Below are positions 5,780-21,815 of a DNA stretch of 24,000 nucleotides, piece by piece. Origin of the DNA: an uncultured Thermodesulfobacteriota bacterium (GTDB lineage: Bacteria > Desulfobacterota > B13-G15); NCBI GenBank assembly GCA_964448445.1, contig CAYVAU010000012.1, positions 7,925 to 31,924 on the forward strand, written 5' to 3'. A program made the translations under genes and the position numbers. The notes under the pieces are model-generated. The model saw only the letters and a list, made by a program, of their open reading frames with translations. It did not search any database and was not told the DNA's origin. Positions within the stretch are counted from its first letter, which is position 1. Each line of letters begins with the position of its first letter.

Positions 5780-6115
5780 CTATCCCAATTTCCCCCGGAT
5801 ATCAACTTCCTGCCGCACCCATTCCAGATATCCTCGACTTCCCCCCACCACAGGAATGGCCACAACCTCGGGGGTCTCGTAGGGATGTTGCTCGAGGATT
5901 ACGGCCTCAAGTTGGGGATAGAGCTCTTGGGTGGTCTTGATCAGACACAGCCACTCTTCGGCCTCCTCTTCCTTGCCCTTCCAGTGATAAAAGCTCCTTA
6001 TGGGGCCCAGGATCTGGATGCATGCAGAAAGCCTCTTTTGTAAAAGACTTCGGGCCATCCTGTGGGCATCCTCGGGGTTGTCGAAGGTGGTCAGGACCAA
6101 AAGGATCCCGGTCAA
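5780..6115 (-). CDS. cutA: Divalent-cation tolerance protein CutA
   Basis: 111-aa ORF. The segments ACIQILGPIRSFYHWKGKEEEAEEWLCLIKT and HPYETPEVVAIPV follow the CutA1 pattern. Confidence 0.8.
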   Translation of the reverse strand: MTGILLVLTTFDNPEDAHRMARSLLQKRLSACIQILGPIRSFYHWKGKEEEAEEWLCLIKTTQELYPQLEAVILEQHPYETPEVVAIPVVGGSRGYLEWVRQEVDIRGKLG

Positions 6116-6888: not shown

Positions 6889-6959
6889 CCTTGTCTTTTG
6901 AAACCAATTTTATAAAAATGCACCTCAACAGGCCAACCAGCATAAAGGAGGTTTCCCCA

Positions 6960-8117
6960 ATGGAGCTCTCCCGCAGGATAAAGTCGCTGCCGAGATATCT
7001 TTTTGCCGAACTGGACAAAAAGAAACAAGCCTTAAGACAACAGGGAAGGGAATTGATAGACCTGAGCGTAGGAGATCCCGATCTTCCCACCCCTCATGGG
7101 ATCATAGACAGGATGTCCCAGGAGATCCGCCACCCTCAAAACCACCGCTATCCGGACTACGAGGGCCTGCTCGAGTTCAGGGAAGCCGTGGCTTCGTGGT
7201 ACTGGAGGCGATTTGGGGTGAGCCTGGACCCTTCCGCCGAGGTCATGGCCCTCATCGGCTCCAAAGAGGGGATAGCCCATCTGCCCCTGGCCTTCGTTGA
7301 CCCGGGGGACTATGTGCTTGTGCCCGATCCCGGTTACCCCGTTTATCGGGCCTCGACGATCCTCTCAGAAGGCATTCCCTACACTTTGCCCCTTAAGGAA
7401 GAGCGGGGATTTTTGCCCGATTTGAGGGATGTCCCCTCCGAGATCGCCAAAAAGGCCAAACTCCTTTTCCTCAACTATCCCAATAATCCCACTGGGGCCA
7501 CGGCCACAAGGGAGTTTTTCAGGGAGGCCGTGGCCTTTGCAAGGGAATATGACCTCATAGTGTGCCACGATGCCGCCTACAGCGAGCTTTACTTCGAATC
7601 CCCTCCCCCGAGCTTTTTGAGCGTTGAAGGGGCAAAGGATGTGGGGGTGGAGTTCCACTCCCTTTCCAAGACCTTCCGCATGACCGGTTGGAGGATCGGC
7701 TTTGTCGTTGGCAATGCCGCGGTGCTTTCGGGGCTTGGAAGGGTCAAAACGAACGTGGACTCGGGGGTGTTCAACGCCATCCAGAGGACATCGGTATGGG
7801 TCCTTCAAGGGAACATGGATCAAGAAGCCGAGAGGTGGCGGCAGGAGCTGAGGAGGCGGAGGGATGTGATGGTGGAGGGGTTGAGGAGCCTGGGCTTTAA
7901 GGTCGAACCCCCCAAGGCCACCTTCTACCTCTGGCTGAAGGTGCCCGAGGGCTACACCAGCAGGGACTTTGCCGAAAGGCTCCTTGAGGCCGGGGTGGTG
8001 GTGACCCCTGGGGTCGGTTTCGGCGAATGGGGAGAAGGTTATGTTAGGATGGCCCTGACCGTCACCGAGGAACGGCTAAGGGAGGCCTTGAGGAGACTCC
8101 GGGAGGTCAAGCTTTGA
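6960..8117 (+). CDS. dapL: LL-diaminopimelate aminotransferase (class I PLP aminotransferase, DapL type)
   Basis: I place the start at ATG 6960, which follows AAGGAGG, rather than at the ORF-track start 6870. Motifs: LPRYLFAELDKKK, LSVGDPDLPTP, LIGSKEGIAH, FLNYPNNPTGA, and HSLSKTFRMTGWRIG (PLP lysine). Confidence 0.8.
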   Translation: MELSRRIKSLPRYLFAELDKKKQALRQQGRELIDLSVGDPDLPTPHGIIDRMSQEIRHPQNHRYPDYEGLLEFREAVASWYWRRFGVSLDPSAEVMALIGSKEGIAHLPLAFVDPGDYVLVPDPGYPVYRASTILSEGIPYTLPLKEERGFLPDLRDVPSEIAKKAKLLFLNYPNNPTGATATREFFREAVAFAREYDLIVCHDAAYSELYFESPPPSFLSVEGAKDVGVEFHSLSKTFRMTGWRIGFVVGNAAVLSGLGRVKTNVDSGVFNAIQRTSVWVLQGNMDQEAERWRQELRRRRDVMVEGLRSLGFKVEPPKATFYLWLKVPEGYTSRDFAERLLEAGVVVTPGVGFGEWGEGYVRMALTVTEERLREALRRLREVKL

Positions 8118-8333
8118 CCACTCAAGGGGGAGTTCCTCCTTCAATCCCTCCAAGAACGCCACAAACTCCCCTTCAAGCTCGACTGGCACATAGAGTTCCA
8201 TTTCCCCGCGGGAGGCATCCACGGTCCTTGAAGAGGCCAATCCCTCATAGGATTCGAGCAAGAAGTTGAAAAACGCCATTTCCTCCTTCGGTACTTTCAC
8301 CCGATAGATCAAGGTATCCCTTTCATAATCCAT
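8076..8333 (-). CDS. Small DUF4911-like protein (85 aa)
   Basis: The internal ATG at 8333 gives MDYERDTLIYRVKVPKEEMAFFNFLLESYEGLA.... This resembles DUF4911 family members as I recall them. The longer 151-aa reading would run antisense through the GGDEF gene's N-terminus. Confidence 0.5.
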   Translation of the reverse strand: MDYERDTLIYRVKVPKEEMAFFNFLLESYEGLASSRTVDASRGEMELYVPVELEGEFVAFLEGLKEELPLEWSKLDLPESPQGLP

Positions 8334-8347
8334 GGGAAAAATGATAC

Positions 8348-8367
8348 AAAATTTGCGTTCAAATTTT
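8348..8367. promoter_or_regulatory. Perfect 8-bp inverted repeat AAAATTTG-cgtt-CAAATTTT in the AT-rich divergent intergenic region. It is a candidate operator.
   Basis: Read directly: 8348-8355 AAAATTTG and 8360-8367 CAAATTTT. It lies between the DUF4911 start (8333) and the preferred GGDEF-gene start (8383). Confidence 0.25.
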
Positions 8368-8382
8368 AAAAGGAATTTCTCG

Positions 8383-9891
8383 ATGGAGAAATTAAAGAAT
8401 TTGCTGAAGGTCCTTGTCCTTCCTTTCCTTCGCTCCATGGGGAGGGTGGAGCTCCTTAGGGCCATAATCGATTCGATCCCCGATGGGGTTATAGCGGTGG
8501 ATAGAGAAGGGAGGGTGATCCTCTGGAACAAGGCGGTCAGTCAAATGACCGGGGTGGAGGAGAAGGAGATCTTGGGGAAGGGCGATTATGCTTATGCCGT
8601 TCCCTTTTATGGTGAAAAGAGGCCCCTCCTTGTGGACCTCATCTTGAGGGGCGAGGGGGAGTGGAGGAGGCGGTACGAGGGGTTTAAGCGGAGGGGAGAT
8701 ACCATAACCGCCGAGGGTTTTGCCCCTGCAGCCTACGGAGGGAGGGGGCTTTTCTTCTGGACCCTGGCTGCCCCCATAAGGGATGAGGAGGGGAGGATCA
8801 TAGGGGCGGTTCAGTGCATAAGGGACATAGCCGAAAGGAAGAGGATGGAGGAGGAGCTCCGCTGGAGGAGCTTCCATGATCCCTTAACCGGTGTTTACAA
8901 TCGTACCTATTTCGAAGAGGAGCTGAGGAGGCTTAAGGTCAGCCGCTCCTATCCGGTGAGCCTGATCCTCTGCGATGTGGACAACCTCAAGATGATCAAC
9001 GATTTCCTCGGCCACGACCAGGGTGACGAGGTCTTGAAGCGCATCGCAAAGGCCATATCGGACTCGGTGAGGGCATCCGATGTGGTGGCCAGGGTGGGAG
9101 GGGACGAATTCGCGGTGCTTTTGCCCCGGACCGACAGCCGGACGGCCGAACAGGTGGCCGAGCGGATCCTTAAGGCCGTAGAGAGGGAAAGGGAAAGGTC
9201 CCCCGAGCTCCCTCTGGAGCTTTCGGTGGGTTATGCCACAGCCAACGATCCCTCCAGGACCCTGGAGGACCTCTACCGTGAGGCGGATGACATGATGTAC
9301 CGCAACAAGCTCGTGAGGGGATTGAGTCCCAGGAGCTCGGTGGTGCATGTGCTCAAGGCCGCCTTGAGGGAAAAGGACTTCGCCGCCGAGGGACATATAG
9401 AGAGGGTGAAGAGGTTCAGCCTGCTGCTGGGCGAAGCCCTCGATCTCTCCCGGCCGGAGCTCGAATTGCTGGAACTCCTGGCTGAGGTCCACGACATAGG
9501 CAAGATCGGGGTCCCAGATGAGGTCCTCTTCAAACCCGGAAGGCTCACCCCGGAGGAGTGGGAGGAGGTGAGGAAGCACCCTGAGATCGGGTACCGTATT
9601 GCCCTTTCCTCTCCCGAGCTAGCGCCTGTGGCCGAGTTGATCCTGCAACATCACGAGCGCTGGGATGGAAAGGGATATCCGCAGGGTCTTAAGGGAGAGG
9701 GGATAAACCTTTTGAGCCGCATAGTCGCCATAGCCGATGCCTTTGACGCCATGACCTCGGACAGGCCCTACCGTCGGGCCCTCTCCTGGCAGGAGGCCCT
9801 CGAGGAACTGAAGAAGGGTGCGGGGACCCAGTTCGATCCCAAGCTTGTCGAGGTCTTCCTCTGGCTTATCGGGGGGAAGGGGGATGCGTAG
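8383..9891 (+). CDS. PAS sensor with GGDEF diguanylate cyclase and HD-GYP phosphodiesterase domains (c-di-GMP turnover)
   Basis: PAS segment: LLRAIIDSIPDGVIAVDREGRVILWN. GGDEF domain with I-site: RASD-VVAR-VGGDEF at 9070-9111. HD-GYP: HDIGKIG ... HHERWDGKGYPQGL. The start is ambiguous. ATG 8383 follows AAAGGAA, while the ORF-track start 8332 would overlap the divergent start codon. Confidence 0.85.
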   Translation: MEKLKNLLKVLVLPFLRSMGRVELLRAIIDSIPDGVIAVDREGRVILWNKAVSQMTGVEEKEILGKGDYAYAVPFYGEKRPLLVDLILRGEGEWRRRYEGFKRRGDTITAEGFAPAAYGGRGLFFWTLAAPIRDEEGRIIGAVQCIRDIAERKRMEEELRWRSFHDPLTGVYNRTYFEEELRRLKVSRSYPVSLILCDVDNLKMINDFLGHDQGDEVLKRIAKAISDSVRASDVVARVGGDEFAVLLPRTDSRTAEQVAERILKAVERERERSPELPLELSVGYATANDPSRTLEDLYREADDMMYRNKLVRGLSPRSSVVHVLKAALREKDFAAEGHIERVKRFSLLLGEALDLSRPELELLELLAEVHDIGKIGVPDEVLFKPGRLTPEEWEEVRKHPEIGYRIALSSPELAPVAELILQHHERWDGKGYPQGLKGEGINLLSRIVAIADAFDAMTSDRPYRRALSWQEALEELKKGAGTQFDPKLVEVFLWLIGGKGDA

Positions 9892-10405
9892 CAGGGTGAC
9901 GCTTGTTACTGGAGGGGCAAGGAGCGGAAAGAGCCGCTTTGCACAGGGGCTCGCCGCCGAGTCGGACCTTCCGGTGGTTTACCTGGCCACCGCTTCAGCC
10001 GGAGACCCCGAAATGGCCCGAAGGATCGAGGAACATCGTAGGCTTAGGCCCAGCCATTGGAGGACGGTGGAGGAGGGAAAGGACATCTTGGGAACCATCA
10101 AGGGCCTCACAACTCCCCATACGGTCCTTGTGGATTGCATAACCCTTTGGATCAGCAACCTCCTGGAGGAGGGCCTCGGGGATGAGGAGATCCTCCAAAG
10201 GGCCCGCCACCTTGCCGACTTCCTCCCCTCTTCGGGACACCGTATAATTCTGGTCACCAACGAGGTCGGATGGGGAATCGTCCCCCCCTCCCCCTTGGGG
10301 AGGCGTTTCAGGGATCTTGCCGGAAGGGTAAATCAGATCCTCGCTGAGGCTTCAGATGAGGTCTTCCTCATGGTATCGGGCCTCCCCCTGAGGATAAAGC
10401 CGTGA
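9884..10405 (+). CDS. cobU: Bifunctional adenosylcobinamide kinase / adenosylcobinamide-phosphate guanylyltransferase
   Basis: ATG 9884 overlaps the upstream stop (ATGCGTAG). P-loop VTGGARSGKSRFA and the histidine-containing segment IEEHRRLRP are present. Length is 173 aa. Confidence 0.85.
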   Translation: MRSRVTLVTGGARSGKSRFAQGLAAESDLPVVYLATASAGDPEMARRIEEHRRLRPSHWRTVEEGKDILGTIKGLTTPHTVLVDCITLWISNLLEEGLGDEEILQRARHLADFLPSSGHRIILVTNEVGWGIVPPSPLGRRFRDLAGRVNQILAEASDEVFLMVSGLPLRIKP

Positions 10406-11106
10406 AGGCAGTTTTCGCGGCCTTAAGTTTCATGACCATTTTGCCCGTCCCTCCAGGAGGGGCTTTTCACAAAGCCCCCGCTTTCTTTCCCCTGGTGGGG
10501 GCCATTCTTGGAACGATCCTCTGGGCGATATCCCTCCCCTTGGGTTTGCTCTGGGGGGAGGAATTTTCCGCCTTGGGGATGGTGCTGGGGCTCTCGATCC
10601 TCACCCGGGGGCTTCATCTGGATGGCCTTGCGGATTCAGTGGATGCCCTTTTAGGCCCGAGGGAAAAGGCCCTCGAGATAATGCGCGATCCCCATATCGG
10701 GACCTTTGGAACGCTGGCCATTGTGGGGGTGATCCTGGCGAAGTTCGTCCTACTGCTGAACCTCGGGAGGGACTGGCATGCCCTTTTGCTCTTTCCGACC
10801 CTCGGAAGGATGGCAGCTCTTTTGCCCATGTACAGCCTCCCCTATCTCAGGGGAGAGGGGAAGGTCAGCCCCTTTCTGCCCATGGGAAAGGGGACCCTCG
10901 GGGTGGGCCTTCTGTTTTCGCTTGCCCTGTCGTCTTTGCTCCTTTGGCCGGTAGGTGTTGTGGTTTTCGGTATTGTCCTTTTTTACGGCCTTGCTGTTTC
11001 CCTTTATTTGAAAAGGAGGCTCGGGGGGGTGACCGGTGATCTATTGGGCGCCACGGTTGAGACGGCCGAGGTGGTGTCCCTGATGACCCTGGGGGTATTG
11101 AGGTAG
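10402..11106 (+). CDS. cobS: Adenosylcobinamide-GDP ribazoletransferase (cobalamin synthase)
   Basis: Polytopic membrane protein. The N-terminus MKAVFAALSFMTILPVP and the segment HLDGLADSVDAL are typical of CobS. It has a 4-nt overlap with cobU. Confidence 0.85.
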   Translation: MKAVFAALSFMTILPVPPGGAFHKAPAFFPLVGAILGTILWAISLPLGLLWGEEFSALGMVLGLSILTRGLHLDGLADSVDALLGPREKALEIMRDPHIGTFGTLAIVGVILAKFVLLLNLGRDWHALLLFPTLGRMAALLPMYSLPYLRGEGKVSPFLPMGKGTLGVGLLFSLALSSLLLWPVGVVVFGIVLFYGLAVSLYLKRRLGGVTGDLLGATVETAEVVSLMTLGVLR

Positions 11107-12171
11107 ATGGTTCACGGCGGCAGGGTCTTTGAGGCATCCGAGATCACCGGTTTAGGAATCGAGGAGATCTTGGATTTTTCGGCCAATCTCAATGCCTTCC
11201 TCGATCCCTCACCCCTGTGGGATCTCCTGAAGGAGCACATCCACTGGATATCCTTCTATCCCGATGCGATGAGGGCCATAAGGGCCCTCTCGAGCTTCCT
11301 GCAGGTGCCCGAGGATAACCTCTGGGTAGGCAATGGTTCGGCCGAGTTGATCTTTTCGGTCCTCAGGGCCATCAGGCCCAAGAAGGTGCTCATACCCGTT
11401 CCGACCTTTTCCGAATACGAGAGGGCTGCCCTGGCCTCGGGCTCACAGGTGGAGTTCCTGAAACTCAGGGAAGAGGACGGCTTCAGACCATCCCTTGAGG
11501 ACCTCCTCAGGGCAGGGGAGACCTCCGAGATGTTGATCCTCTGCAACCCCAACAACCCCACGGGGGTCCTCCTCAGCCAGGAGGAACTCCTCGAGCTAAT
11601 TCGGGGGCTTAAGGAAACCTGGATCCTTGTGGATGAGGCCTTTCTGCCTTTCGTCAAACCCCAAAAGAAACCTGACCTCCGCAAGGTGGCACTGCAGCAG
11701 AGGGTGATCCTGCTTAGGTCCCTCACCAAGACCTTCGCCATCCCCGGACTGAGGCTCGGCTACCTTTTGGCTCCAAAGGGGGTGATTAGCAAAATCCGAG
11801 CCACAGCACCTCCCTGGCCCATAAATACCCTTTCCCAGCTGGTGCTCGAGCGCCTGGATGAGCTTTGGCCAATTCTCGAAAAGGGTCTTGGGGAGTTCTT
11901 CGGGGAGAGGGAGAGGTTCTTTGGGAGGCTCAGCAGTTTCCTTCTGGTCTATCCTTCTGAGGCAAATTTCTTCCTGCTCAAGGTCCAGGACCCCCAACTC
12001 CCCTCAAAGCTCATGGTCAAGGGGATCCTGATACGGGGTCCCTCGGGCTTCAGGAACCTCGGTCCAGGATATCTGCGGGTTGCCATAAGGCGTCCTTGGG
12101 AAAACGAAAGGTTGATAGGGGCACTTCAGGAGGTGATCGATGGGCCTGAAGGAGATCCTTTCGCAGATTAA
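11107..12171 (+). CDS. cobD: L-threonine-O-3-phosphate decarboxylase (CobD of Salmonella nomenclature; class I/II aminotransferase fold)
   Basis: The N-terminus MVHGGRVFE ... ILDFSANLNAF is the signature start of this family. NPNNPTG and the PLP-lysine segment RSLTKTFAIPGLRLGY are also present. Confidence 0.8.
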   Translation: MVHGGRVFEASEITGLGIEEILDFSANLNAFLDPSPLWDLLKEHIHWISFYPDAMRAIRALSSFLQVPEDNLWVGNGSAELIFSVLRAIRPKKVLIPVPTFSEYERAALASGSQVEFLKLREEDGFRPSLEDLLRAGETSEMLILCNPNNPTGVLLSQEELLELIRGLKETWILVDEAFLPFVKPQKKPDLRKVALQQRVILLRSLTKTFAIPGLRLGYLLAPKGVISKIRATAPPWPINTLSQLVLERLDELWPILEKGLGEFFGERERFFGRLSSFLLVYPSEANFFLLKVQDPQLPSKLMVKGILIRGPSGFRNLGPGYLRVAIRRPWENERLIGALQEVIDGPEGDPFAD

Positions 12172-13210
12172 GCCCCTTAATAGGGAAGCCATTCAGGAGG
12201 CCAAGAGGCGGACCGAGGATCTGCTCATGCCCCGCCTGGCCCTGGGCAGGCTTCATGAAATCTCCTGGCAGGTGGCCGGGATAACCGGGAAGATCCCCAA
12301 GGCCCTGCCTAAGAAGGTGGTCATGGTGGGTGCGGGAGATCACGGGGTGGCAGAGGAAGGGGTGAGCCTCTTTCCCCAAGAAGTGACTAGGCAGATGGTC
12401 CTTTCCTTTATCAGGGGCTGGGCAGCCATAAACGTGATCGCAAGATATGTAGGGGCAAGGGTCATCGTGGTGGACTTTGGCGTCAAGGGTCCTCCCGACC
12501 CCGAATGGATCAACGCCAGGGGGCGCTTTTATTCCATGAAGGTGAGGGAGGGAACCTCCAACATCGCCAGAGGTCCGGCCATGTCCCTGCGAGAGGCCGA
12601 AGAGGTCGTCCTTAAGGGAATCGAGGTCTTTGAGCGGGAGGCCGAAAAGGGGATCGACATCATAGCCACGGGCGACATGGGCATTGCGAATACCACCGCT
12701 TCAGCAGCAGTAATCTGCGCCATAACGGGCTTGGATCCCCACGAGGTAGTGGGGAGGGGCACAGGGCTCGATGACCGGGCCTTGGAGCACAAGATCTCGG
12801 TGGTTAAGCGGGCCCTGGAGGTCAACAGGCCCAACCCCCGCGATGCCCTCGATGTGCTGAGCAAGGTCGGTGGGCTCGAAATAGGGGGCATATGCGGGTG
12901 GATCATCGGAGGGGCAAGGGCAAGGGTCCCCGTCGTGGTCGATGGCTTCATCTCTACAGCTGGGGCCCTTTTAGCCGTAACCCTTGAGCCGAAGGTGAAG
13001 GATTACCTCTTTGCAGGCCATTGCTCCGCGGAGAAGGGCCACAGGAAGGTCCTTCAGTACCTGGGCCTTGAGCCCATTCTCGATCTGCAGATGAGGCTTG
13101 GCGAAGGAACCGGTGCGTGCCTGGCCCTGGAGATCGTGGAGGCGTCGGTGAAGATTCTGGCCGAAATGGCGACCTTCGAGGATGCTGGGGTGAGCAAGGC
13201 CCTAAAATAG
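12140..13210 (+). CDS. cobT: Nicotinate-nucleotide--dimethylbenzimidazole phosphoribosyltransferase
   Basis: Motifs LGRLHEIS, GDHGVAEEGVS, GDMGIANTTASAA and LRLGEGTGA. It has a 32-nt overlap with the preceding gene. Confidence 0.9.
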   Translation: MGLKEILSQIKPLNREAIQEAKRRTEDLLMPRLALGRLHEISWQVAGITGKIPKALPKKVVMVGAGDHGVAEEGVSLFPQEVTRQMVLSFIRGWAAINVIARYVGARVIVVDFGVKGPPDPEWINARGRFYSMKVREGTSNIARGPAMSLREAEEVVLKGIEVFEREAEKGIDIIATGDMGIANTTASAAVICAITGLDPHEVVGRGTGLDDRALEHKISVVKRALEVNRPNPRDALDVLSKVGGLEIGGICGWIIGGARARVPVVVDGFISTAGALLAVTLEPKVKDYLFAGHCSAEKGHRKVLQYLGLEPILDLQMRLGEGTGACLALEIVEASVKILAEMATFEDAGVSKALK

Positions 13211-14224: not shown

Positions 14225-14812
14225 ATGAAACTGGGTATAAAGTTAAGTAACAGGATACTGTCCCTTGCCTTGAAGGAGCTGGTGCTTTCGGCTTTGCCTT
14301 TCGGGTGGAAGGCCTATGAAGGTGATGGTGTGCCCGGGGATGTCGATGTGTTGGTTGTGGATTATCCTGTCCTTTCGTCGGGCAGGGTGTCGGCCTTCAG
14401 GGGGGCTAAGGTCTTGGTCCTTGATACAGGTCTCAGCATGGCGGAAAAAAGAGGCTGTTTTCTCCTTCATGGTGTAAAGGGAGTGGTCCAGCGGGATGCC
14501 GCTTTACCCTTGTTCATTAAGGCCTTGGACAGGGTCAATAAGGGTGAACTGTGGATCGATCAGGAGACCCTAAAGGAGGTGGTCAAGGTTTCCAGGAACG
14601 GGCGCATGGTCCCCAAGGGGGTTACACCAAGGGAAAGGGATGTTCTCTTTTTGGTCTGTAAGGGTTACACCAATAAGGAGATCGCTTCGGAACTCGGCAT
14701 CAGCCTTTCGACGGTAAAGAGCATCCTGGGGAATCTCTATCGCAAGTTCAATGTGTCGGGGCGTTCGATGCTTCAGGCCACTGTGACCCGAGGGCAGCTC
14801 CTCACCCTCTAA
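14225..14812 (+). CDS. LuxR/FixJ-family transcription regulator with an atypical (CsgD-like) receiver-like N-terminal domain
   Basis: C-terminal HTH: TPRERDVLFLVCKGYTNKEIASELGISLSTVKSILGNLYRKF. The N-terminal ~120 aa have an alternating beta/alpha pattern with VDVLVVDYPV, but no acidic pair is evident in the first strand. Confidence 0.8.
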   Translation: MKLGIKLSNRILSLALKELVLSALPFGWKAYEGDGVPGDVDVLVVDYPVLSSGRVSAFRGAKVLVLDTGLSMAEKRGCFLLHGVKGVVQRDAALPLFIKALDRVNKGELWIDQETLKEVVKVSRNGRMVPKGVTPRERDVLFLVCKGYTNKEIASELGISLSTVKSILGNLYRKFNVSGRSMLQATVTRGQLLTL

Positions 14813-15330
14813 GGGGCCTTTAAGGTGAGGGATTGGAGGTTCCTGAAGACCCCGAGGGTCAATCCCCCCATTGGATAGAGGTAAAGTTTGAGACCCGACT
14901 TTCCGGTCCCGGAGATCGTCACCCTTTGGGCCGTATCCTCTGTGATTTCGACCTGGACTCTATTGGCCTTAAAGCCCTCTATCCAGCTCCGCTTCTCCCC
15001 CTCAAGATCGTTCTGGACCAGGTAAACGGCCATATGGTAGACGGTGCAGCGGTCATCCCCTACGGAGGTGATAAGCAGGGAGTGCTGCACCTTGTCCGGT
15101 GTTTGGAAATCGACGGCGAGGCTTCCGGTTGCCCTGTCAAAGGTGGCATACCAGGGGACCCCCTTTGGGACCCTCTGATCGAGGACCAAACGGCAGAGGG
15201 GGTTCATCCCGTTAACTATCTCCGGGGAGAAGCCCTTCTCAAGGAGGGATTCCTCGGGGCCACCCCTAGCATTCCCTGAGGTCAAAAGGGAGAGAATCAG
15301 GGCAAAGAGGATGAGCCTCGCCTTTCCCAT
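14809..15330 (-). CDS. Secreted protein of unknown function (173 aa), last gene of the repeat-protein operon
   Basis: ATG at 15330 overlaps the upstream TAA (TAATG coupling). The ORF-track GTG start is at 15342. The signal peptide is MGKARLILFALILSLLTSGNA. I recognise no family. Confidence 0.6.
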   Translation of the reverse strand: MGKARLILFALILSLLTSGNARGGPEESLLEKGFSPEIVNGMNPLCRLVLDQRVPKGVPWYATFDRATGSLAVDFQTPDKVQHSLLITSVGDDRCTVYHMAVYLVQNDLEGEKRSWIEGFKANRVQVEITEDTAQRVTISGTGKSGLKLYLYPMGGLTLGVFRNLQSLTLKAP

Positions 15331-15782
15331 TACAGTCCCCACGGCAGTGACCTTATGATCTCCTCCACGCCCAGCTGCGTGACCTGGATTATGCTGATGT
15401 TGATGATTAGGTCCGTATCGATGATATTGTTGGACCCTGGAACTTGCACAATCTGGAAGACCCCCCTCGCCCCATAAAATCCTCCTACAGAGGCCTCAAT
15501 CCTCACATTGGACGGAAGGGAGGGGGCAGAGGCGGGTTCTCCTTGGGTCTCGTAGAAGGAATTCCCCAGGGTGTCCCAGTATCCCTCAAAGACGACCGAA
15601 AAGCTCATCCCCATGTACGCACCCCTCATTTCGTCCAGCTCCCCCTCGTCGACGGCCTGAGCGACCACCTCTTCTCCCAGAAAGATCGCCTCTTCAAAGA
15701 TTCGGGGGGAGGAGGCGCGAACTGAGCCAGCCACAAGCATCACCGCCAGCAATGCTCCTATGATCAACAGACAGCCTTTCAT
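15330..15782 (-). CDS. Secreted 150-aa protein carrying one degenerate copy of the N/Q/G core repeat
   Basis: ATG at 15782 follows GGAGG (gaggaaggaggtaaaaATG). The signal peptide is MKGCLLIIGALLAVMLVAGSVRA. The segment GVFQIVQVPGSNNIIDT (15414-15464) aligns to GIVNVNQSVGNMNNQAN. The 189-aa ORF-track extension overlaps the C39 gene and was discarded. Confidence 0.65.
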   Translation of the reverse strand: MKGCLLIIGALLAVMLVAGSVRASSPRIFEEAIFLGEEVVAQAVDEGELDEMRGAYMGMSFSVVFEGYWDTLGNSFYETQGEPASAPSLPSNVRIEASVGGFYGARGVFQIVQVPGSNNIIDTDLIINISIIQVTQLGVEEIIRSLPWGL

Positions 15783-15798: not shown

Positions 15799-16482
15799 TC
15801 AAAACTCACCTGGCGGTCTGAAGGAGCCCCAAGCCCCTGTCCAGTCCATAAGCCCCTTCCATTGGGCCTGCATGATCGGGGCCTTTGGGCGCGTTTCAAG
15901 GGGAAGGGGCGTTGTGGGGGCCTTCTTGTAGACGACGAAAATGACCCCGTTCCATCCCTTCAGGAACTCCTCCATCCTGAGACTCCTGTTCCCCACCGCT
16001 GGATCAGCCAGAAAGACCCTGTTGCTATCTGTACCCTTGAGGACGACAAAGTGCTTGTAACCCCGGGTGTTGAGCAATACGATCACGGGGATCTTGATCT
16101 TTGGGAGATCCTTGGCCTTAATTCTGTAACCGTTGGCCACAAATCCCTTGGAGGATGCGTATCGTTTGAGATCGAGAAGGGAGAATCCCTTCTTGCGGAT
16201 CTTTTCGCGATCCCCTATCTCAAGCATCTCCTTTACGATCTCCCGCTCGGATACCTCCTGGCCGTAGTAATACTTGATGATGGTAGCAAGGGAGGCGGCC
16301 CCACAGCTGAAATCGTAACGCTGGGGGACCACCTTCCTGAACCTGGCCTCCCGCAACGAAACTACTTCCTTCCTCAGATACCCGCCGAAGGGACCCCGAA
16401 CCTTGAGGGATGCCGGATATCCTCCAAAGGGAAGAAGTGCAAGGAAGAGGACTACCGCTGATATCCGGACTCCCCACATCAC
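15799..16482 (-). CDS. Stand-alone periplasmic C39-family cysteine peptidase (bacteriocin-processing peptidase fold), FapD-like in context
   Basis: The signal peptide is MMWGVRISAVVLFLALLPFGG. The catalytic Cys lies in YDFSCGAASLATII (codon 16303-16305). His is in YKHFVVL and Asp is in FLADP. The start is GTG 16482 or ATG 16479, and it overlaps the upstream TGA. Confidence 0.85.
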   Translation of the reverse strand: MMWGVRISAVVLFLALLPFGGYPASLKVRGPFGGYLRKEVVSLREARFRKVVPQRYDFSCGAASLATIIKYYYGQEVSEREIVKEMLEIGDREKIRKKGFSLLDLKRYASSKGFVANGYRIKAKDLPKIKIPVIVLLNTRGYKHFVVLKGTDSNRVFLADPAVGNRSLRMEEFLKGWNGVIFVVYKKAPTTPLPLETRPKAPIMQAQWKGLMDWTGAWGSFRPPGEF

Positions 16483-17093
16483 CTGACCTCCTGCCGCAGC
16501 GAAATCCCCAGCCGGTTGCAGATGGAGTTGTTGTTCCCCGAGGACTGACTGAGGATCCCCACCCCAGAAGCCCCGACGAAGGAATCGGCAATGATATCTT
16601 CCCTCATCCCTCCCCCTTCCGCTACCTGCCCTCGGAGCAGGCGGGGGCTCTCCCTCTCGAGCTCCCTTTCGCTGAGGAGGAGCACCCCTCCTATGGAGCA
16701 GAACATGAAGTTTGACTGATCGTTGAGGTTTCCCGATGATTGATTGACCATAAAGATCCCCTGGGATCCCGAAAAGGACCCGATGATGGAATCCCGGCTC
16801 TGGGAGTTCAGGATCGAGGCGGTGGAACGATCGCGTTGTTGCCGAAGGAAGGCCTCGAGTTCCACAGCCCCCCCTGTCAGGGAGAACAGCAGAAGATTTG
16901 CCTGGTTGTTGAGGGATCCGGAGGCCTGATTGAGGGTGTAAAGACCTTGGTTTTCCGTAAAGGAAAATTGAACCAATGTGCTGCTGGAGGTGTCCGAGGA
17001 GAGGATGAAAGAAGAAGTTTCGAGGCCACTGGAGAGGGCATCCGCTGCCACTGCCACCGATATCACCATTATGAGAATCGCCACCTTGAACAC
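16479..17093 (-). CDS. Secreted 204-aa repeat protein, the shorter and more degenerate paralogue of the two upstream repeat proteins
   Basis: GTG start at 17093, 6 nt after AAGGAGG. The signal peptide is MFKVAILIMVISVAVAA. The three cores are GLYTLNQASGSLNNQAN, GIFMVNQSSGNLNDQSN and GVGILSQSSGNNNSICN. Confidence 0.75.
   Translation of the reverse strand: MFKVAILIMVISVAVAADALSSGLETSSFILSSDTSSSTLVQFSFTENQGLYTLNQASGSLNNQANLLLFSLTGGAVELEAFLRQQRDRSTASILNSQSRDSIIGSFSGSQGIFMVNQSSGNLNDQSNFMFCSIGGVLLLSERELERESPRLLRGQVAEGGGMREDIIADSFVGASGVGILSQSSGNNNSICNRLGISLRQEVR
16515..16946 (-). repeat. Three spaced copies of the 17-codon N/Q/G core inside the 204-aa gene
   Basis: The cores lie at 16896-16946, 16710-16760 and 16515-16565. 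I verified the second by back-translation. Core starts are 62 and 65 codons apart. Confidence 0.8.
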
Positions 17094-17152: not shown

Positions 17153-17983
17153 TTACCTGGCCCCCATTTCTATGACACTGGGGACGCTCGCCGAGATGCT
17201 GATGATATTGGACTGGTTGTTCATGTTGCCTGAGGACTGGTTGACGTTGACGACGCCGACATTCCCGTTGATAGAGTTGGCGATCGAGTCAAGCCTGACG
17301 GTGCCCCACTCGTAGACCGTATTGCCGGTGCTGCTCTGCCCGAGATCCGCCTCAGATAGCGCCACCAGGGCCTCGCTGGCAACGGCCAGAACTATCTGAT
17401 TTGCCTGGTTGTTCATGTTGCCAACTGACTGATTTACGTTCACAATACCCATGTTATCCAGGATGGAGCCCGAGATCAGGGATTTCTTCTGTGGACCAGC
17501 AGTGTAGTCTTCCACAGCGTCCACGGAATTTCCTCCGTTTACCTGCTGCATCGATGCTTGGGAGTTGGCAAAACCGAGTACCCCTTCACCCTCGGACCAA
17601 GAGATGGCCGCGCTGATGAGGTTTGCCTGGTTGATGGAGTTGCCCACTTCCTGGTTTAGGTTGACGATGCCGGTGTTGGTGTTGACCGAGTCGCTGAGCG
17701 TGGCGGTCCTGTAGATCATGTCATACTGAGGTTTAAATTCATTAGAATACCTCGATACCGTATTTTCGGTTGCGGACTGATTGAGGAGGCTGCTGGCCTC
17801 AGCTCCTTGGTTGCCTTCAACGGCTATATCGACCTTGACCCTGACCCCTTTGTTGATCCTGACCTTCTCGTTGACCGTGACGCTCTTTGTCTTTTCCACC
17901 GTCCCGGTGACATCCAAATCGGCGAGGGCATAGCCCACCGCCCCGAGGAGAAATATTGCTGTAAGTGCCAAAATCTTTTTCAT
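17153..17983 (-). CDS. Secreted 276-aa Asn/Gln/Gly-rich three-repeat protein. It is the candidate major fibre/amyloid subunit (FapC/CsgA analogue).
   Basis: ATG at 17983 lies 8 nt after GGAGG. The signal peptide is MKKILALTAIFLLGAVGYALA. The three cores are GIVNLNQEVGNSINQAN, GIVNVNQSVGNMNNQAN and GVVNVNQSSGNMNNQSN. It contains no Cys. Confidence 0.85.
   Translation of the reverse strand: MKKILALTAIFLLGAVGYALADLDVTGTVEKTKSVTVNEKVRINKGVRVKVDIAVEGNQGAEASSLLNQSATENTVSRYSNEFKPQYDMIYRTATLSDSVNTNTGIVNLNQEVGNSINQANLISAAISWSEGEGVLGFANSQASMQQVNGGNSVDAVEDYTAGPQKKSLISGSILDNMGIVNVNQSVGNMNNQANQIVLAVASEALVALSEADLGQSSTGNTVYEWGTVRLDSIANSINGNVGVVNVNQSSGNMNNQSNIISISASVPSVIEMGAR
17207..17671 (-). repeat. Three spaced copies of the 17-codon core G-[IV]-V-N-[VL]-N-Q-x-x-G-N-x-x-N-Q-x-N in the 276-aa gene
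   Basis: The cores lie at 17621-17671, 17399-17449 and 17207-17257. I verified the first by back-translation. Each is preceded by a [ST]-x-[SG]-x-S-[IV]-x-x-N-x segment. Confidence 0.85.
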
Positions 17984-18006
17984 CTTTTACACCTCCTTTT
18001 AGGTTT

Positions 18007-18819
18007 TTACATGCCGTAAACCGAGCCAGAGATGTTGACGGCGTTGAGCTGGTTGCCCAACACCCCCGCGCTCTGGTTTACCTCGACCACACCCACATTC
18101 TCGTTTATGGATCCGGAGATGGTGGCGGTCTTGGTGGTGTCATATTCCATGAAGCTGTTTCCGGCTACGGCCTGACCGAGATCGGCCTCAGCAAGGGCCA
18201 CAAGGCCGCTGAAGCTGACACCCAAGGTCAACCCATTGCCCTGATTGGAGATGTTTCCGACCGACTGATTGACCATCACAATCCCTGTGTTCGTGTTGAT
18301 GGAACCCGTAATTACGGCATCCCTGTAAAGGATCTGGATGCTATCTATGGTGTTTCCCTCCATCAGCTGGCCCACCGATGTCTGGGCATGGGCAAAGCCA
18401 TAGCCCTCAGCGGGGGGCTCGCCATTGCCATTCGGGGTCCCGCCATTTATGGGTCCATCAACGGCCGCAGAGAGCATGTTCGACTGATTGGCCATGTTCC
18501 CCGTGGCCTGGTTCAGATTGACGATCCCTGCATTATTCAGTATCGAACCAACAACCTCACTCGTCTTTTCAGCACAGTTCTCGCAGGCGAAGTTTCCCCT
18601 CTGGCTCTGATTAAGGACCGCATGGGCCTCGGCAGCCTTCTCTCCTACCACATCCAGGGTCACATCGACAGAAAGGTTCTTCTTTATATTGATGACTTCC
18701 TCGACATTGACCGTCTTCTCCTTTGTCACCGTGCCACTGGCCTCCACATCTGCCAGAGCGGAAATCGCCCCGACAAATAGGAAACACGACGCAATTGCCA
18801 CTACTTTCAATCCATTCAT
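18007..18819 (-). CDS. Secreted 270-aa three-repeat protein, full-length paralogue of the 276-aa protein. It is a candidate second subunit or nucleator (FapB/CsgB analogue).
   Basis: ATG at 18819 lies 5 nt after GGAGG. The signal peptide is MNGLKVVAIASCFLFVGAISALA. The cores are GIVNLNQATGNMANQSN, GIVMVNQSVGNISNQGN and GVVEVNQSAGVLGNQLN. The shared blocks LVAL[SA]EADLGQ and GTV.K.K.V.V show the two proteins are collinear. Confidence 0.85.
   Translation of the reverse strand: MNGLKVVAIASCFLFVGAISALADVEASGTVTKEKTVNVEEVINIKKNLSVDVTLDVVGEKAAEAHAVLNQSQRGNFACENCAEKTSEVVGSILNNAGIVNLNQATGNMANQSNMLSAAVDGPINGGTPNGNGEPPAEGYGFAHAQTSVGQLMEGNTIDSIQILYRDAVITGSINTNTGIVMVNQSVGNISNQGNGLTLGVSFSGLVALAEADLGQAVAGNSFMEYDTTKTATISGSINENVGVVEVNQSAGVLGNQLNAVNISGSVYGM
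18043..18528 (-). repeat. Three spaced copies of the 17-codon core in the 270-aa gene
   Basis: The cores lie at 18478-18528, 18235-18285 and 18043-18093. I verified the first by back-translation. Confidence 0.85.
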
Positions 18820-18908: not shown

Positions 18909-19205
18909 TTACCACCCCACTATCTTCAAAACATTTACCTGAACGTTGCCGCATCCAGAAGATATGTTGTCAATTTCCATGCTCCTTTTGATCTCATCCC
19001 ACAGAACGATTTTACTGCTCTCTGACATAATGAGGGTGATATTGCCTTCGCCTTGTCCCCATATCTGTGACAATTCATCAGAAGTGAGCGGATAATTGAC
19101 AACTTCAAAAGGAATCCCTCCATCAGAAAGAGCCTTCGATGTACCACAAAATAGACACAAACAAAAGCATACAATAACACAAACAATCCAGTACCTGTGA
19201 TGCAT
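18909..19205 (-). CDS. Putative small secreted protein (98 aa), first ORF of the operon
   Basis: ATG at 19205 lies 14 nt downstream of the sigma54 -12 element and has no SD. The hydrophobic N-terminus MHHRYWIVCVIVCFCLCLFCGTSKA is unusually Cys-rich. The ORF is AT-rich relative to its neighbours, so coding status is uncertain. Confidence 0.4.
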   Translation of the reverse strand: MHHRYWIVCVIVCFCLCLFCGTSKALSDGGIPFEVVNYPLTSDELSQIWGQGEGNITLIMSESSKIVLWDEIKRSMEIDNISSGCGNVQVNVLKIVGW

Positions 19206-19219
19206 GGTTTAAAATGATC

Positions 19220-19234
19220 GCAATTAGCATGCCA
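19220..19234 (-). promoter_or_regulatory. Sigma54 (RpoN) -24/-12 promoter for the repeat-protein operon
   Basis: The minus strand reads TGGCATGCTAATTGC, against the consensus TGGCAC-N5-TTGC. The GG and GC dinucleotides have exact spacing. The site is in an intergenic AT-rich region, and a sigma54 activator gene lies about 1.1 kb away. Confidence 0.65.
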
Positions 19235-19386: not shown

Positions 19387-20361
19387 ATGGTAAAGTTTAG
19401 GTTGGGAGTGATAGTTTTTGTGGTCTTGGTCTTTTCGGTGTTTGGCGGTCCTTTAATGGCCCAGGAGTCCGGGGAGAAGAAGCCGGCTGAGGCCCTTTTG
19501 GCCGAGCAAGGGGGGGTGCTTTTGCCCAAGGGCGCGTTGGTCCTTGAGCCCTCCATAAAGTACAGCCATTTTTCGAGGCATCGCATTGCCATCTCCGGTT
19601 TTTCGATCCTTGAGGCGATAGTCATAGGGCGGATAGAGGTGAGGGATGTGAAGAGGGATATCCTTCAGTTTTCCCTGACGGGCCGTTATGGCCTTACCAA
19701 TCGTTTGGAACTTGAGGCCGAGGTCCCTTATTTGTTCGTGCACTATCGGGATCTGAGGAGGGCCGAGGGTGATGGTGGGCCCTACAAGGTTAGCGACAAC
19801 GACATCGGGGATGTGGAAGGGGGCATCTATTATCACCTGATAAGGGAGAAGGGGTGGGTGCCCGATATAGTGGTGAACTTGAGGGTGAAGGCCCCTACTG
19901 GGAAGGACCCCTATGAGGTCGAACGCGAGGGCAATAGATTAAAGGAACTTCCCACCGGCAACGGCCACTGGGGCCTATCGGGGGGCTTTACCATGGTTAA
20001 GGCGAGTGACCCCGCAGTTTTCTTTGCGGGCCTTAACTACCAGTGGAACATAGAGCGCGATGTGGGCAAGGGTTATGGGAAGATCGATCCCGGCGACAGC
20101 ATCGAGTACAACCTCGGCATGGCCTATGCCCTAAGTGAGCGATTTTCCCTCTCCACGTCCTTTCAGCAGCGCATAACCTTTGAGACCGAACAAAACGGCC
20201 ACAAGGACCCGGAGACTTATATGAACGTGGCTTCTGTGAATTTTGGCCTGAATTACTCCCTCTCTAAAACGGCGGGTTTGAACATCAATGTGGGGATCGG
20301 GCTGACCGAAGATTCCCCGGATTTCGAGGTGACCCTCAGCGTGCCCCTCAGGGTGTTTTAG
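19387..20361 (+). CDS. Outer-membrane beta-barrel protein (transporter-like). It is the candidate export channel for the repeat proteins (FapF/CsgG analogue by context).
   Basis: ATG lies 6 nt after GGAGG. The signal peptide is MVKFRLGVIVFVVLVFSVFGGPLMA. Amphipathic strands alternate throughout, and the C-terminus is LSVPLRVF with a terminal Phe. The family call is from pattern only. Confidence 0.75.
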   Translation: MVKFRLGVIVFVVLVFSVFGGPLMAQESGEKKPAEALLAEQGGVLLPKGALVLEPSIKYSHFSRHRIAISGFSILEAIVIGRIEVRDVKRDILQFSLTGRYGLTNRLELEAEVPYLFVHYRDLRRAEGDGGPYKVSDNDIGDVEGGIYYHLIREKGWVPDIVVNLRVKAPTGKDPYEVEREGNRLKELPTGNGHWGLSGGFTMVKASDPAVFFAGLNYQWNIERDVGKGYGKIDPGDSIEYNLGMAYALSERFSLSTSFQQRITFETEQNGHKDPETYMNVASVNFGLNYSLSKTAGLNINVGIGLTEDSPDFEVTLSVPLRVF

Positions 20362-21815
20362 TCCTTACTCTGGATCCTGTAGCGCCTCATGAGGTTGTAA
20401 ACGGTGGGGCGGCTCACACCGAGGATTTTTGCCGTGCGGGTGATGTTGTAGTTGGAGGCCTTAAGGGCCTGAAGGAGGCTCTCCTTCTCGATCCTCTGCC
20501 TGATTTCCTTTATGCCGGAAGGCCTCTTCGGGGCCTCAGGGGCCTGGATGGACAGGTCCTCAGGTCGGATCACCTCCGATTCGGAGATGAGCAGGGCCTT
20601 GCGGATCTTGTTTATCATCTCCCTGACATTGCCCGGCCAGTGGTACTGCATTATGGCCTCAAGGGCCTCCTTGCTGAAGCGCTTCTTCGGACCGGGTTGA
20701 TCCTCCTGGAGCTTCTTCAAAAAGTAAGTGGCCAAAATGACCTTGTCCTTTCCCCTCTCCCTCAGAGGGGGGAGTTCAACGGTTACAACGCTCAAACGGT
20801 AATAGAGGTCCTCCCTGAAGCGGCCCTCCTCGACCTCTTCCTCCAGGTTCCTATTGGTTGCGGCGATGATCCTCGTATCGACTCTCCTGGTGGTCCTTGA
20901 TCCTATCCGCTCGATACTGCCATCCTCGAGAAACCTCAGCAATTTCGCCTGCAGGGCAAGGGGCAGTTCCCCGATCTCGTCCAGAAACAGCGTGCCACCG
21001 TGGGCCTGTTCCACTTTGCCCTTCCTTGCGGTGTAAGCCCCGGTGAAGGCCCCCCGTTCGTAGCCGAAAAGCTCGGCCTCTAGGAGGTTTTCCGGGATTG
21101 CGGCGCAGTTTATGACCACGAAGGGCTTGTCGCGCCTTGGGCTCCTTTCGTGGATGGCCCTTGCCGTCAATTCCTTCCCCGTACCGGTTTCGCCCAGGAT
21201 GAGCACGGGAACATCAGTAGGGGCCACTTTCCTTATCAGGGAGAAGACCTTGAGCATGGCCTCGCAGGTCCCCACGAACTCCTCGTCCTCCTTCTCGCCT
21301 TTGTGTTCAAGGGCCCTGTCCACATAGGGGAGCAGTTGCAGGCAGAAATCGCCGTTTAGGTCCTTGAAGCGCCTCTTTAAACGCTCCCAAAGGGTGTCCT
21401 GGATGTGCCTTTGGAGATAATCCTGCTGGTTGAAGCAGAGCAGAAGCTTACAGTTGGGACACCGCAGGAGCAGGACCGTTGGCAGGGAGGTATTGCAGTA
21501 GGGGCAGGATTCAAACCCCTTCTCGGGCAACCCATCCCTTATCATGGACCAGAGGCCTACCAGTTCGTTCACATCGCGAAAGACGAAGGACACCGCCCCC
21601 TCTCCCCCCTCCCTCCTCAGGAACCTGACCCTTAGCGATAGCCTCCTTCCCCTCTCGTCGGAGAAGTGGAGAAGGCCGAACTCCCCCGGGGGGAGGTTCC
21701 CCTTGAGCAGGGCCCCTCCGAGGCTTACGTTGCACACCGTCACCGCAAAGAAACCGTTTTCCCCCTCAAGCTGGCCAGGCCAAGAACCCCTGATCCTAAC
21801 GTCCAATCTCGCCAT
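20358..21815 (-). CDS. Sigma54-dependent transcriptional activator with an N-terminal PilZ domain and a Zn-ribbon (PilZ, CxxC-CxxC, AAA+, Fis-type HTH)
   Basis: PilZ motifs: RLDVR (21795-21809) and NVSLGG (21714-21731). Zn-ribbon: CPYCNTSLPTVLLLRCPNC. Walker A: GETGTGKE. Sigma54-contact loop: ERGAFTGA. C-terminal HTH: NITRTAKILGVSRPTVYNLMRR. Confidence 0.9.
   Translation of the reverse strand: MARLDVRIRGSWPGQLEGENGFFAVTVCNVSLGGALLKGNLPPGEFGLLHFSDERGRRLSLRVRFLRREGGEGAVSFVFRDVNELVGLWSMIRDGLPEKGFESCPYCNTSLPTVLLLRCPNCKLLLCFNQQDYLQRHIQDTLWERLKRRFKDLNGDFCLQLLPYVDRALEHKGEKEDEEFVGTCEAMLKVFSLIRKVAPTDVPVLILGETGTGKELTARAIHERSPRRDKPFVVINCAAIPENLLEAELFGYERGAFTGAYTARKGKVEQAHGGTLFLDEIGELPLALQAKLLRFLEDGSIERIGSRTTRRVDTRIIAATNRNLEEEVEEGRFREDLYYRLSVVTVELPPLRERGKDKVILATYFLKKLQEDQPGPKKRFSKEALEAIMQYHWPGNVREMINKIRKALLISESEVIRPEDLSIQAPEAPKRPSGIKEIRQRIEKESLLQALKASNYNITRTAKILGVSRPTVYNLMRRYRIQSKD

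Follow-up and report, generated by a model that had tools for sequence, protein, structure and literature searches.

Many biofilms in the environment are held together by functional amyloids. One of the two bacterial paradigms is the Fap-type amyloid, a fibre of biofilms that was originally described in Pseudomonas. Here we describe a Fap-like locus within a 24,000-nucleotide stretch of DNA (the window) from an uncultured Thermodesulfobacteriota bacterium of the sulfate-reducer type. The locus encodes three paralogous repeat proteins of 270, 276 and 204 amino acids (aa). We consider it probable, at roughly 85%, that the 270- and 276-aa proteins are FapC-like major subunits of a Fap-type functional amyloid and that the 204-aa protein is a FapB-like minor subunit or nucleator, the subunits being exported by way of Sec and a FapF-like pore, alongside a FapD-like peptidase, and assembled into fibres.

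The locus resembles the Pseudomonas system (fapABCDEF) in many respects. In both, subunits exported by Sec (as predicted here) carry three imperfect repeats with variable linkers in between, and the repeats share the minimal pattern G-x4-N-x3-G-x6-N, with Asn, Gln and Gly conserved in register. Both also comprise a short FapB-like paralogue, a periplasmic C39 peptidase (FapD), a FapF β-barrel and, probably, a fibre-associated FapE-like protein encoded after FapD. The differences start with the core of the repeat, which reads G-[IV]-V-x-V-N-Q-S-x-G-N-x-N-N-Q-x-N here and G-N-x-G-x-N-x-A-A-G-x-G-N-Q-Q-x-N in Pseudomonas. The present locus has two FapC-like genes, with the FapB-like gene after rather than before them; its FapF is encoded divergently and does not have the N-terminal coiled coil and linker, and no FapA was recognized. 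The FapE-like protein is about 150 aa long, compared with the 247 positions of the FapE profile, and has a canonical-looking double-glycine leader. Finally, the locus adds genes for a 98-aa and a 173-aa protein, a sigma-54-type promoter and an N-terminal block of about 40 residues in the large subunits.

A second system suitable for comparison is that of Hypericibacter adhaerens (Alphaproteobacteria; CP042582, positions 6061–12831 of locus L007), whose subunits belong to the same FapBC subfamily at about 40% identity. The order of long paralogues, a shorter FapB-like protein, a C39 peptidase and a FapE-like homolog of about 158 aa with an RGG leader motif is shared with our locus. Hypericibacter differs in having four FapBC paralogues and in encoding FapF within the same operon, as a 485-aa protein with a long N-terminal extension. 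Its fapF directly follows the gene for the 158-aa protein, so that the operon has no counterpart of the 173-aa gene, and public gene calls contain no counterpart of the 98-aa gene.

Nearly all Fap subunits have three imperfect repeats, and there are reports of Fap operons from Desulfobacterota, Nitrospirota and Bacillota (PMC12822426). Both the subunit family and the Fap operons of Desulfobacterota are thus already known (Pfam; PMC12822426), and the locus described here is a divergent, uncharacterised Fap system.

Three paralogous repeat proteins

An earlier reading of the DNA letters (the original prediction) had proposed that two neighboring open reading frames (ORFs) encode tandem, collinear, secreted paralogues, each with three spaced copies of an Asn/Gln/Gly core, arranged in the FapB/FapC manner. 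The proteins and their cores are as follows.

18007–18819, minus strand: probable FapC-like amyloid subunit, 270 aa (ORF, precomputed Pfam FapBC, NCBIfam FapC, three Fap repeat matches, cores verified)
18478–18528, 18235–18285 and 18043–18093, minus strand: cores of the 270-aa protein (translation checked)
17153–17983, minus strand: probable FapC-like amyloid subunit, 276 aa (Pfam FapBC, NCBIfam FapC, structural model, Foldseek, family profile; paralogous to the 270-aa protein)
17621–17671, 17399–17449 and 17207–17257, minus strand: cores of the 276-aa protein (translation checked)
16479–17093, minus strand: FapB-like short subunit, 204 aa, putative nucleator (NCBIfam FapB, Pfam FapBC, repeat pattern and layer alignment)

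Both of the predicted ORFs exist, and their products align from end to end with 42% identity (E-value 4e-51), which bears out the tandem collinear paralogy. Translation of the six core coordinate ranges gives, in every case, the 17-residue core that had been proposed. The strict motif, G-[IV]-V-x-[VL]-N-Q-x-x-G-N-x-x-N-Q-x-N, holds for five of them; the sixth, at 18043–18093, reads GVVEVNQSAGVLGNQLN, with GV replacing GN. There is no further occurrence of the strict motif in the six-frame translation of the whole window. In the 270-aa protein core starts lie 81 and then 64 residues apart, and the corresponding distances in the 276-aa protein are 74 and 64; all agree with the proposed range. 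Also recovered exactly as quoted were the N-terminal block AD-x4-GTV-x-K-x-K-x-V-x-V, the internal block LVAL[SA]EADLGQ, the three conserved elements upstream of the cores and the Gly/Pro-rich linker, which is linker 1 of the 270-aa protein. The pattern proposed to precede each core, [ST]-x-[SG]-x-S-[IV]-[NL]-x-N-x, proved too narrow: as written it fits two of the six cores and fails for the other four, whereas all six agree with the looser x-[IVL]-x-[GDN]-S-[IV]-[NL]-x-N-x. Off-register BLASTP alignments, of repeat 1 with repeat 2 and of repeat 2 with repeat 3, reach E-values as low as 3e-11, and the internal repetition is therefore statistically real.

The 204-aa protein (17093 down to 16479) lies directly downstream, beyond the range covered by the original prediction. 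It is similar to the 276-aa protein (E-value 3e-12) and, by sequence, belongs to the same set as the two larger paralogues. Short linkers join its three Fap repeats, two of them strict and one degenerate, and the N-terminal block of the larger proteins is missing. The nine repeat layers of the three paralogues align to a single consensus, a.a.a.l..Q...gN...i.gSi..N.Giv.vNQs.GN.nNQ.N. Individual repeat units are 59–71 residues long, with linkers between them that vary among orthologues. The subunits are predicted to be secreted on the basis of their N-termini (MKKILALTAIFLLGAVGYALA before D in one case, ...VGAISALA before D in the other) and of a helix modeled at residues 3–19 of the 276-aa protein.

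Two features of the large subunits deserve separate mention. One is a CxxC pair (NFACENCAEK, residues 76–85) in repeat 1 of the 270-aa protein, which is kept in all four orthologues (those of the window and of the related loci L003, L004 and L005). It is absent from the 276-aa paralogue and unusual in a secreted amyloid subunit, and could represent a disulfide or a metal site. The other is the conserved N-terminal block of about 40 residues (residues 21–58 of the 276-aa protein and the equivalent region of the 270-aa protein), with the alternating pattern ADVxVxGxVxKxKxVxVxExVxIxKxV.... This block is modeled with low confidence, does not align to Pseudomonas FapC and may serve in secretion or targeting or provide an additional pair of strands. 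The local Pfam scan gave a sub-threshold CBM_4_9 match at residues 21–86 of the 276-aa protein (E-value 5e-4; 20.9 bits, with the cut-off at 25.9), which we judged to be compositional because the block follows an alternating V/K/T pattern. We also set aside a 271-aa ORF antisense to the 270-aa gene (17965–18780, plus strand), as a shadow ORF and no coding candidate.

Family assignment of the subunits

The Pfam family FapBC (PF27129) is on record, as precomputed annotation, for all three repeat proteins of the locus. A large-database search returned 362 relatives, and PF27129 is likewise precomputed for all 120 listed homologs. Among NCBIfam models, FapC matches the 276-aa protein (E-value 3.4e-19) and the 270-aa protein (E-value 1e-10), and these are their only meaningful family matches. 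The 204-aa protein matches FapB (E-value 1.5e-11) over positions 16–188 of the 190-position profile. No enzyme family was matched by the subunits. Judged by these sequence comparisons, the three paralogues are family-level relatives of FapC and FapB, not equivalogs.

We then turned to the repeats. The minimal Fap repeat defined by Dueholm et al. (X15-G-X4-N-X3-G-X6-N-X7; PMC3792158), used as a regular expression, matches exactly three times in the 270-aa protein, three times in the 276-aa protein and twice in the 204-aa protein. Composition-preserving shuffles gave on average 0.01–0.04 matches, and since none of 5000 shuffles reached the observed counts, chance is excluded. A profile built from an alignment of 62 homologs (A1, also the basis for the conservation columns and the structural model below) matched only two entries when compared with PDB, the Pseudomonas FapC fibrils 9u4u (E-value 9.6e-7) and 9nqd (E-value 1.4e-6), with the repeats in register. 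Each of the three repeats has its invariant or near-invariant columns of this alignment at matching positions: N110/N184/N248, Q111/Q185/Q249, G114/G188/G252, N115/N189/N253 and Q119/Q193/Q257. At the sequence level, such conserved in-register Asn, Gln and Gly columns are the pattern expected of Asn/Gln ladders as in FapC (PMC12822426).

The family searches also bear on the possibility that the proteins are curli-type subunits (CsgA/CsgB-like). Curli, too, is an extracellular functional amyloid, in which imperfect Asn/Gln-rich repeats stack as a β-solenoid and which includes a nucleator paralogue and an outer-membrane channel; moreover, the repeats studied here are rich in Asn, Gln and Gly, and a CsgA fibril appears in the Foldseek list for our structural model at an E-value of 0.22. 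However, curli is built from simple β-arches, formed by repeats of about 22 residues that follow one another without gaps, and its export depends on the unrelated CsgG/E/F proteins. Our repeats are 59–71 residues long and separated by linkers, and have no Curlin_rpt match in Pfam. There is no homolog of CsgG, CsgE or CsgF among the window ORFs scanned, and the export machinery is FapD/FapF-like. The family searches effectively refute the curli reading. The view that the proteins follow the FapB/FapC design of three imperfect repeats with variable linkers, and not the curlin design, is supported by Pfam, NCBIfam, the A1 profile, the repeat expression and the FapD- and FapF-like partners.

Predicted structure of the 276-aa protein

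The AlphaFold2 (AF2) model of the 276-aa protein, generated with alignment A1, has a mean predicted local distance difference test (pLDDT) score of 75 and a predicted template modeling score (pTM) of 0.66. It consists of a helix at residues 3–19, corresponding to the signal peptide, a low-confidence region at residues 22–54, where the N-terminal block has pLDDT below 50, and 15 strands that form three sets of five, spanning approximately residues 59–129, 137–203 and 208–266. It follows from the strand positions that the second conserved element noticed upstream of each core corresponds to the first two strands of a layer, and the core to the last two. The model is repetitive and all-β rather than a confident globular, non-repetitive fold.

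Foldseek comparison of the model with PDB produced a single significant match, the FapC fibril 9u4u_A (E-value 3.7e-5, probability 0.99), followed by 9nqd (E-value 0.024); all other matches had E-values of 0.14 or more. The lower ranks include monomeric β-helix ice-binding proteins and SufD (E-values 0.14–1). This brings up the possibility that the repeat proteins are monomeric β-solenoid surface proteins (adhesin, ice-binding-like or S-layer-like) of FapB/C ancestry, which use the FapF-like pore and form no fibres. AF2 indeed folds the 276-aa monomer alone into a layered β-structure, and the N-terminal block (residues 21–58), having no aligned counterpart in Pseudomonas FapC, could be an anchoring module. 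However, none of the Foldseek matches other than FapC are significant, and a monomeric solenoid model does not discriminate between the two readings, because FapC in the fibre is itself a three-layer solenoid (PMC12822426). Conservation of open-ended Asn/Gln ladders in the subunits also counts against monomers, as does the co-conservation of a FapB-like putative nucleator and a single-repeat FapE-like protein, which would be sensible for templated polymerisation. We therefore regard non-polymerising surface proteins as unlikely, and Fap-type subunits as the preferred interpretation.

Predicted secretion machinery

Next to the subunit genes, the locus encodes a peptidase and a pore that are both related to Fap components.

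15799–16482, minus strand: FapD-like periplasmic C39 cysteine peptidase, 226–227 aa (NCBIfam FapD, E-value 1.6e-57; Pfam Peptidase_C39, E-value 5.4e-27)
19387–20361, plus strand, divergent: FapF-like outer-membrane β-barrel pore, 324 aa (NCBIfam FapF, E-value 6.5e-57; PDB 5o65)

The start of the peptidase gene overlaps the stop of the 204-aa gene. Its translation contains the Cys motif YDFSCGAAS and the His motif GYKHFVVL, and has a hydrophobic, signal-peptide-like N-terminus. The barrel matches the crystal structure of FapF (PDB 5o65) with an E-value of 1.3e-43 over residues 40–320. Its match to the NCBIfam FapF profile starts at residue 26 of the protein and covers only positions 99–417 of 420. 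A signal peptide is followed by about 20 residues (QESGEKKPAEALLAEQ) before the barrel; this segment is possibly the plug helix of the pore. The orthologues in L003 and L004, at 322–323 aa, are likewise devoid of the coiled-coil/linker domain.

The same two proteins also match models of the Fil system, a putative pilus system of Acinetobacter (FilA–F): NCBIfam FilB, a C39 peptidase, matches the peptidase (E-value 3.2e-37), and FilC, an outer-membrane protein, matches the barrel (E-value 3.3e-21). The FapD (E-value 1.6e-57) and FapF (E-value 6.5e-57) models nevertheless score far better on these proteins, and the subunits match FapC, FapB and Pfam FapBC but no Fil subunit model. Judged by these family models, a Fil-type pilus in place of a Fap amyloid is very unlikely, although the Fil and Fap systems may themselves be related.

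Accessory proteins

Three further small genes belong to the operon.

15330–15782, minus strand: probable short FapE-like protein, 150 aa (position, Hypericibacter homolog, family search)
18909–19205, minus strand: small first gene of the operon, 98 aa (kept in L003 at 2021–2317, in L004 at 2116–2400 and in L005 at 487–771)
14809–15330, minus strand: secreted accessory protein specific to the clade, 173 aa (gene coupled in translation to that of the FapE-like protein; kept in L005)

The 150-aa protein comprises a signal peptide, a double-glycine-type leader, VDEGELDEMRGA (15618–15653), and a degenerate C-terminal Fap-like repeat, GVFQIVQVPGSNNIIDT. It is homologous (E-value 4e-15) to the 158-aa Hypericibacter protein encoded between FapD and FapF, that is, at the position of FapE. 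A word-indexed search with the 150-aa protein returned the query alone; an exhaustive HMMER search returned 123 representatives, 114 of which were aligned (A2) and used for the counts given here. NCBIfam FapE matches 19 of the 114 (best E-value 3.4e-7) and FapB matches nine, while the L005 orthologue of the 150-aa protein reaches a FapE E-value of 0.096. When the FapE-matching region was inspected in two batches of ten members, one batch gave short C-terminal matches only and the other none, and for this reason the link of the family to FapE stays partial. The short matches cover GAxGIFQIxQVPGxxNxVxN, which resembles a single Fap repeat. Overall, sequence similarity and gene position make the 150-aa protein a probable short FapE-like protein. 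Among the proteins found with the FapE-like query was P0218 (439 aa), with six tandem units of GAFAGAxGINQVxQNNGSNNxI; the C-terminal unit of the FapE-like family thus comes back six times in this sequence, which connects that unit with multi-repeat FapC-like proteins.

Just behind the signal peptide, the FapE-like family has the consensus L-x-D-x-E-L-x3-R-G-G. Its core, [LMIV]-x3-[RK]-G-[GA], is present in 90 of the 114 members, ending in GG in 85 and in GA in five; the window protein has RGA. Its residues at positions −12, −8, −7, −4, −2 and −1 are L, E, L, a hydrophobic residue, G and G, which is the spacing of classical double-glycine leaders cleaved by C39 peptidases. The leader thus predicts, from sequence, a FapD-type cleavage site. 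In Pseudomonas, Fap proteins do not have a canonical C39 site, FapE loses its first ~70 residues and the target of FapD is unclear (PMC5557850).

The 98-aa protein has a signal-peptide-like N-terminus, a leader-like motif, LTSDELSQIWGQG (19050–19088; L-T-S-D-E-L-S-Q-I-W-G-Q-G), and a C-terminus ending in NVQVNVLKIVGW. Within its family both the leader-like ELS..[WR]GQGE and the C-terminal GNVQxNVLxIxGW are invariant. Searches of Pfam and NCBIfam gave no family match for it, and the public record has no gene call at this position. Paralogy with the 150-aa protein is undetectable by BLASTP (E-value 1.9), and in an hhalign comparison with the FapE-like family only the leader motif aligns (E-value 3.7e-4, probability 36%).

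Leaders of this kind adjacent to a C39 peptidase gene are reminiscent of bacteriocin ABC exporters, whose leaders have the same double-glycine spacing. One could accordingly envisage that the cluster serves to export peptides, in the manner of bacteriocins or otherwise; the C39 peptidase would then mature small secreted peptides, and the Asn/Gln-rich proteins would be incidental. Both the 150-aa and the 98-aa proteins have double-glycine-type leaders, and the bacteriocin signal model TIGR01847 weakly matches one member of the FapE-like family (E-value 0.09). On the other hand, the leaders here lie behind Sec signal peptides, with G-A in the window protein, and the peptidase is a free-standing, periplasmic enzyme with a signal-peptide-like N-terminus, not fused to an ABC transporter as a cytoplasmic domain, whose best family is FapD. 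Moreover, the FapBC paralogues, three in number, dominate among the conserved cargo-like genes. Peptide export is an extremely unlikely explanation next to a Fap system.

The 173-aa protein has only four homologs among 5.8 billion clusters. Its AF2 model is α/β, with pLDDT of 84, and has no significant fold match in PDB (best E-value 0.027). Speculatively, it could be a clade-specific chaperone that replaces FapA.

Operon organization and proposed regulation

The minus-strand operon has the order 98 aa–C–C–B–D–E–173 aa, with tightly spaced or overlapping genes, and FapF is encoded divergently. This architecture is kept in three related metagenome-assembled genomes (MAGs). The contig itself derives from metagenome assemblies. 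By identity, a Guaymas Basin 'Deltaproteobacteria' MAG is nearest (88%), followed by uncultured Thermodesulfobacteriota (67–68%), and their loci are alike in architecture. The locus departs from the canonical order B–C–D–E–F on one strand, which was found in more than 90% of 1602 clusters in a GTDB-wide screen (PMC12822426). The commonest known deviations are loss of fapA and separation of fapF (PMC3792158).

Two features suggest how the operon may be regulated.

19219–19234, minus strand: candidate sigma-54-type −24/−12 element, TGGCATGCTAATTGCG (GG-N10-GC; pattern match and conservation)
20358–21815, minus strand: sigma-54-dependent transcriptional activator, 485 aa (Pfam Sigma54_activat, E-value 2.4e-74, and HTH_8; PilZ at 6e-4, below the cut-off)

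The predicted +1 of the promoter element is near 19208, about 3 nucleotides before the ATG of the 98-aa gene. The element is kept exactly in L003 (1992–2006), and an equivalent, TGGTATGGTGATTGC, with the same geometry is present in L005 (459–473). In both of these divergent loci, that of the window and that of L005, transcription of the small first gene is thus predicted to begin 2–3 nucleotides ahead of its start codon, so that the mRNA would have almost no leader. Upstream of the ATG of the 98-aa gene, no Shine-Dalgarno sequence can be seen. Sigma-54 patterns are no more frequent in the window as a whole than chance would give (8 observed against 8.3 expected), and we therefore weighed the element by its position and its conservation in related loci. 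A scan of the operon for sigma-70 promoters and terminators gave nothing above shuffle expectation.

The adjacency of the sigma-54 activator is kept in L003 and L004, and this protein is the likely regulator of the operon. A LuxR/GerE-type protein (14225–14812, plus strand), whose gene converges on the end of the operon in an arrangement that is kept in L005, may be a second regulator of the locus. About 9 kb away, a PAS-GGDEF-HD protein is encoded at 8332–9891 (plus strand); together with the sub-threshold PilZ-like N-terminus of the activator, it hints at cyclic di-GMP control of the amyloid operon. The remaining genes of the window are housekeeping: BamA, a Lol-type ABC transporter, LysRS, cobalamin genes and the GGDEF-HD protein.

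A model for the Fap-like system and its implications

How well does the Fap interpretation stand up? A number of observations weigh against it. All components score well below the NCBIfam equivalog cut-offs: 69.7, 41.9 and 44.2 bits for the subunits, compared with 195 and 190 for FapC (NF058558) and FapB (NF058557), 194 bits compared with 330 for the FapD-like peptidase and 193 bits compared with 700 for the FapF-like pore. The local copy of Pfam gave no family match for the subunits, so that the FapBC assignment rests on the precomputed annotation. A single-sequence phmmer search against PDB detected FapC only at an insignificant E-value of about 1. Template modeling (TM) scores of the Foldseek matches to the FapC fibril are low (0.16–0.24, with root-mean-square deviations of 12–13 Å), which means that a global geometric match to the fibril is not demonstrated. 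The 150-aa protein has no direct match in Pfam or NCBIfam, FapE included. The FapF-like pore has neither the N-terminal coiled coil nor the linker, and its ORF cannot extend upstream; in Pseudomonas, the coiled coil, together with the plug domain, is described as critical for FapC secretion (Rouse et al., PMC5557850). Among the operon proteins scanned with Pfam and NCBIfam there was no FapA-named match, the presence of a FapA model in these libraries being unchecked. However, a missing FapA is not disqualifying, because loss of fapA is common, having occurred in 6 of 16 genera (PMC3792158). Finally, formation of fibres by the subunits is a prediction by homology.

With these points in mind, we propose the following model for the Fap-like system. 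A sigma-54 promoter, under the control of the adjacent enhancer-binding protein, would probably drive expression. Sec would carry all components across the inner membrane, and they would stay unfolded in the periplasm. There, the FapD-like C39 peptidase would remove the N-terminal propeptide of the FapE-like protein at ...ELDEMRG-A, and possibly also cut the 98-aa protein. The subunits would exit through the FapF-like barrel, and the FapB-like protein would nucleate assembly outside the cell. Each subunit would then fold as three stacked five-strand layers, one per imperfect repeat, with variable linkers, including the Gly/Pro-rich one, looping out on the surface. The in-register Asn, Gln and Gly residues of the G-x4-N-Q-x2-G-N-x2-N-Q-x-N cores would form ladders along the fibre axis, and end-to-end stacking of subunits would produce a cross-β solenoid fibre built by the two FapC-like proteins; labour would be divided among the three paralogues.

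A further, tentative idea, with the odds somewhat against it, is that these loci represent a distinct Fap subtype, comprising the Thermodesulfobacteriota clade and relatives in Alphaproteobacteria and Nitrospirota. Such a subtype would be characterized by heteromeric fibres co-assembled from two co-conserved FapC-like paralogues, export through a coiled-coil-less FapF (in the Thermodesulfobacteriota loci) and an explicit FapD substrate, the leader of a half-length FapE.

The locus adds a divergent Fap system from an uncultured sediment member of the Thermodesulfobacteriota, one that NCBI equivalog models leave unnamed and whose products appear as 'hypothetical protein' in public records. It retains two FapC-type paralogues side by side and provides a natural FapF without a coiled coil, useful for comparison with Pseudomonas. 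The N-terminus of the FapE-like protein reads as a textbook C39 substrate, which makes the question of the FapD target directly testable. The points most worth following are the double-glycine leader of the FapE-like family and the coiled-coil-less FapF, and Hypericibacter adhaerens, being cultured, offers a tractable organism for the proposed subtype. If the subtype proposal is true, the first FapD cleavage site to be defined by sequence would come from the FapE-like family, and the coiled coil would be dispensable for amyloid export.

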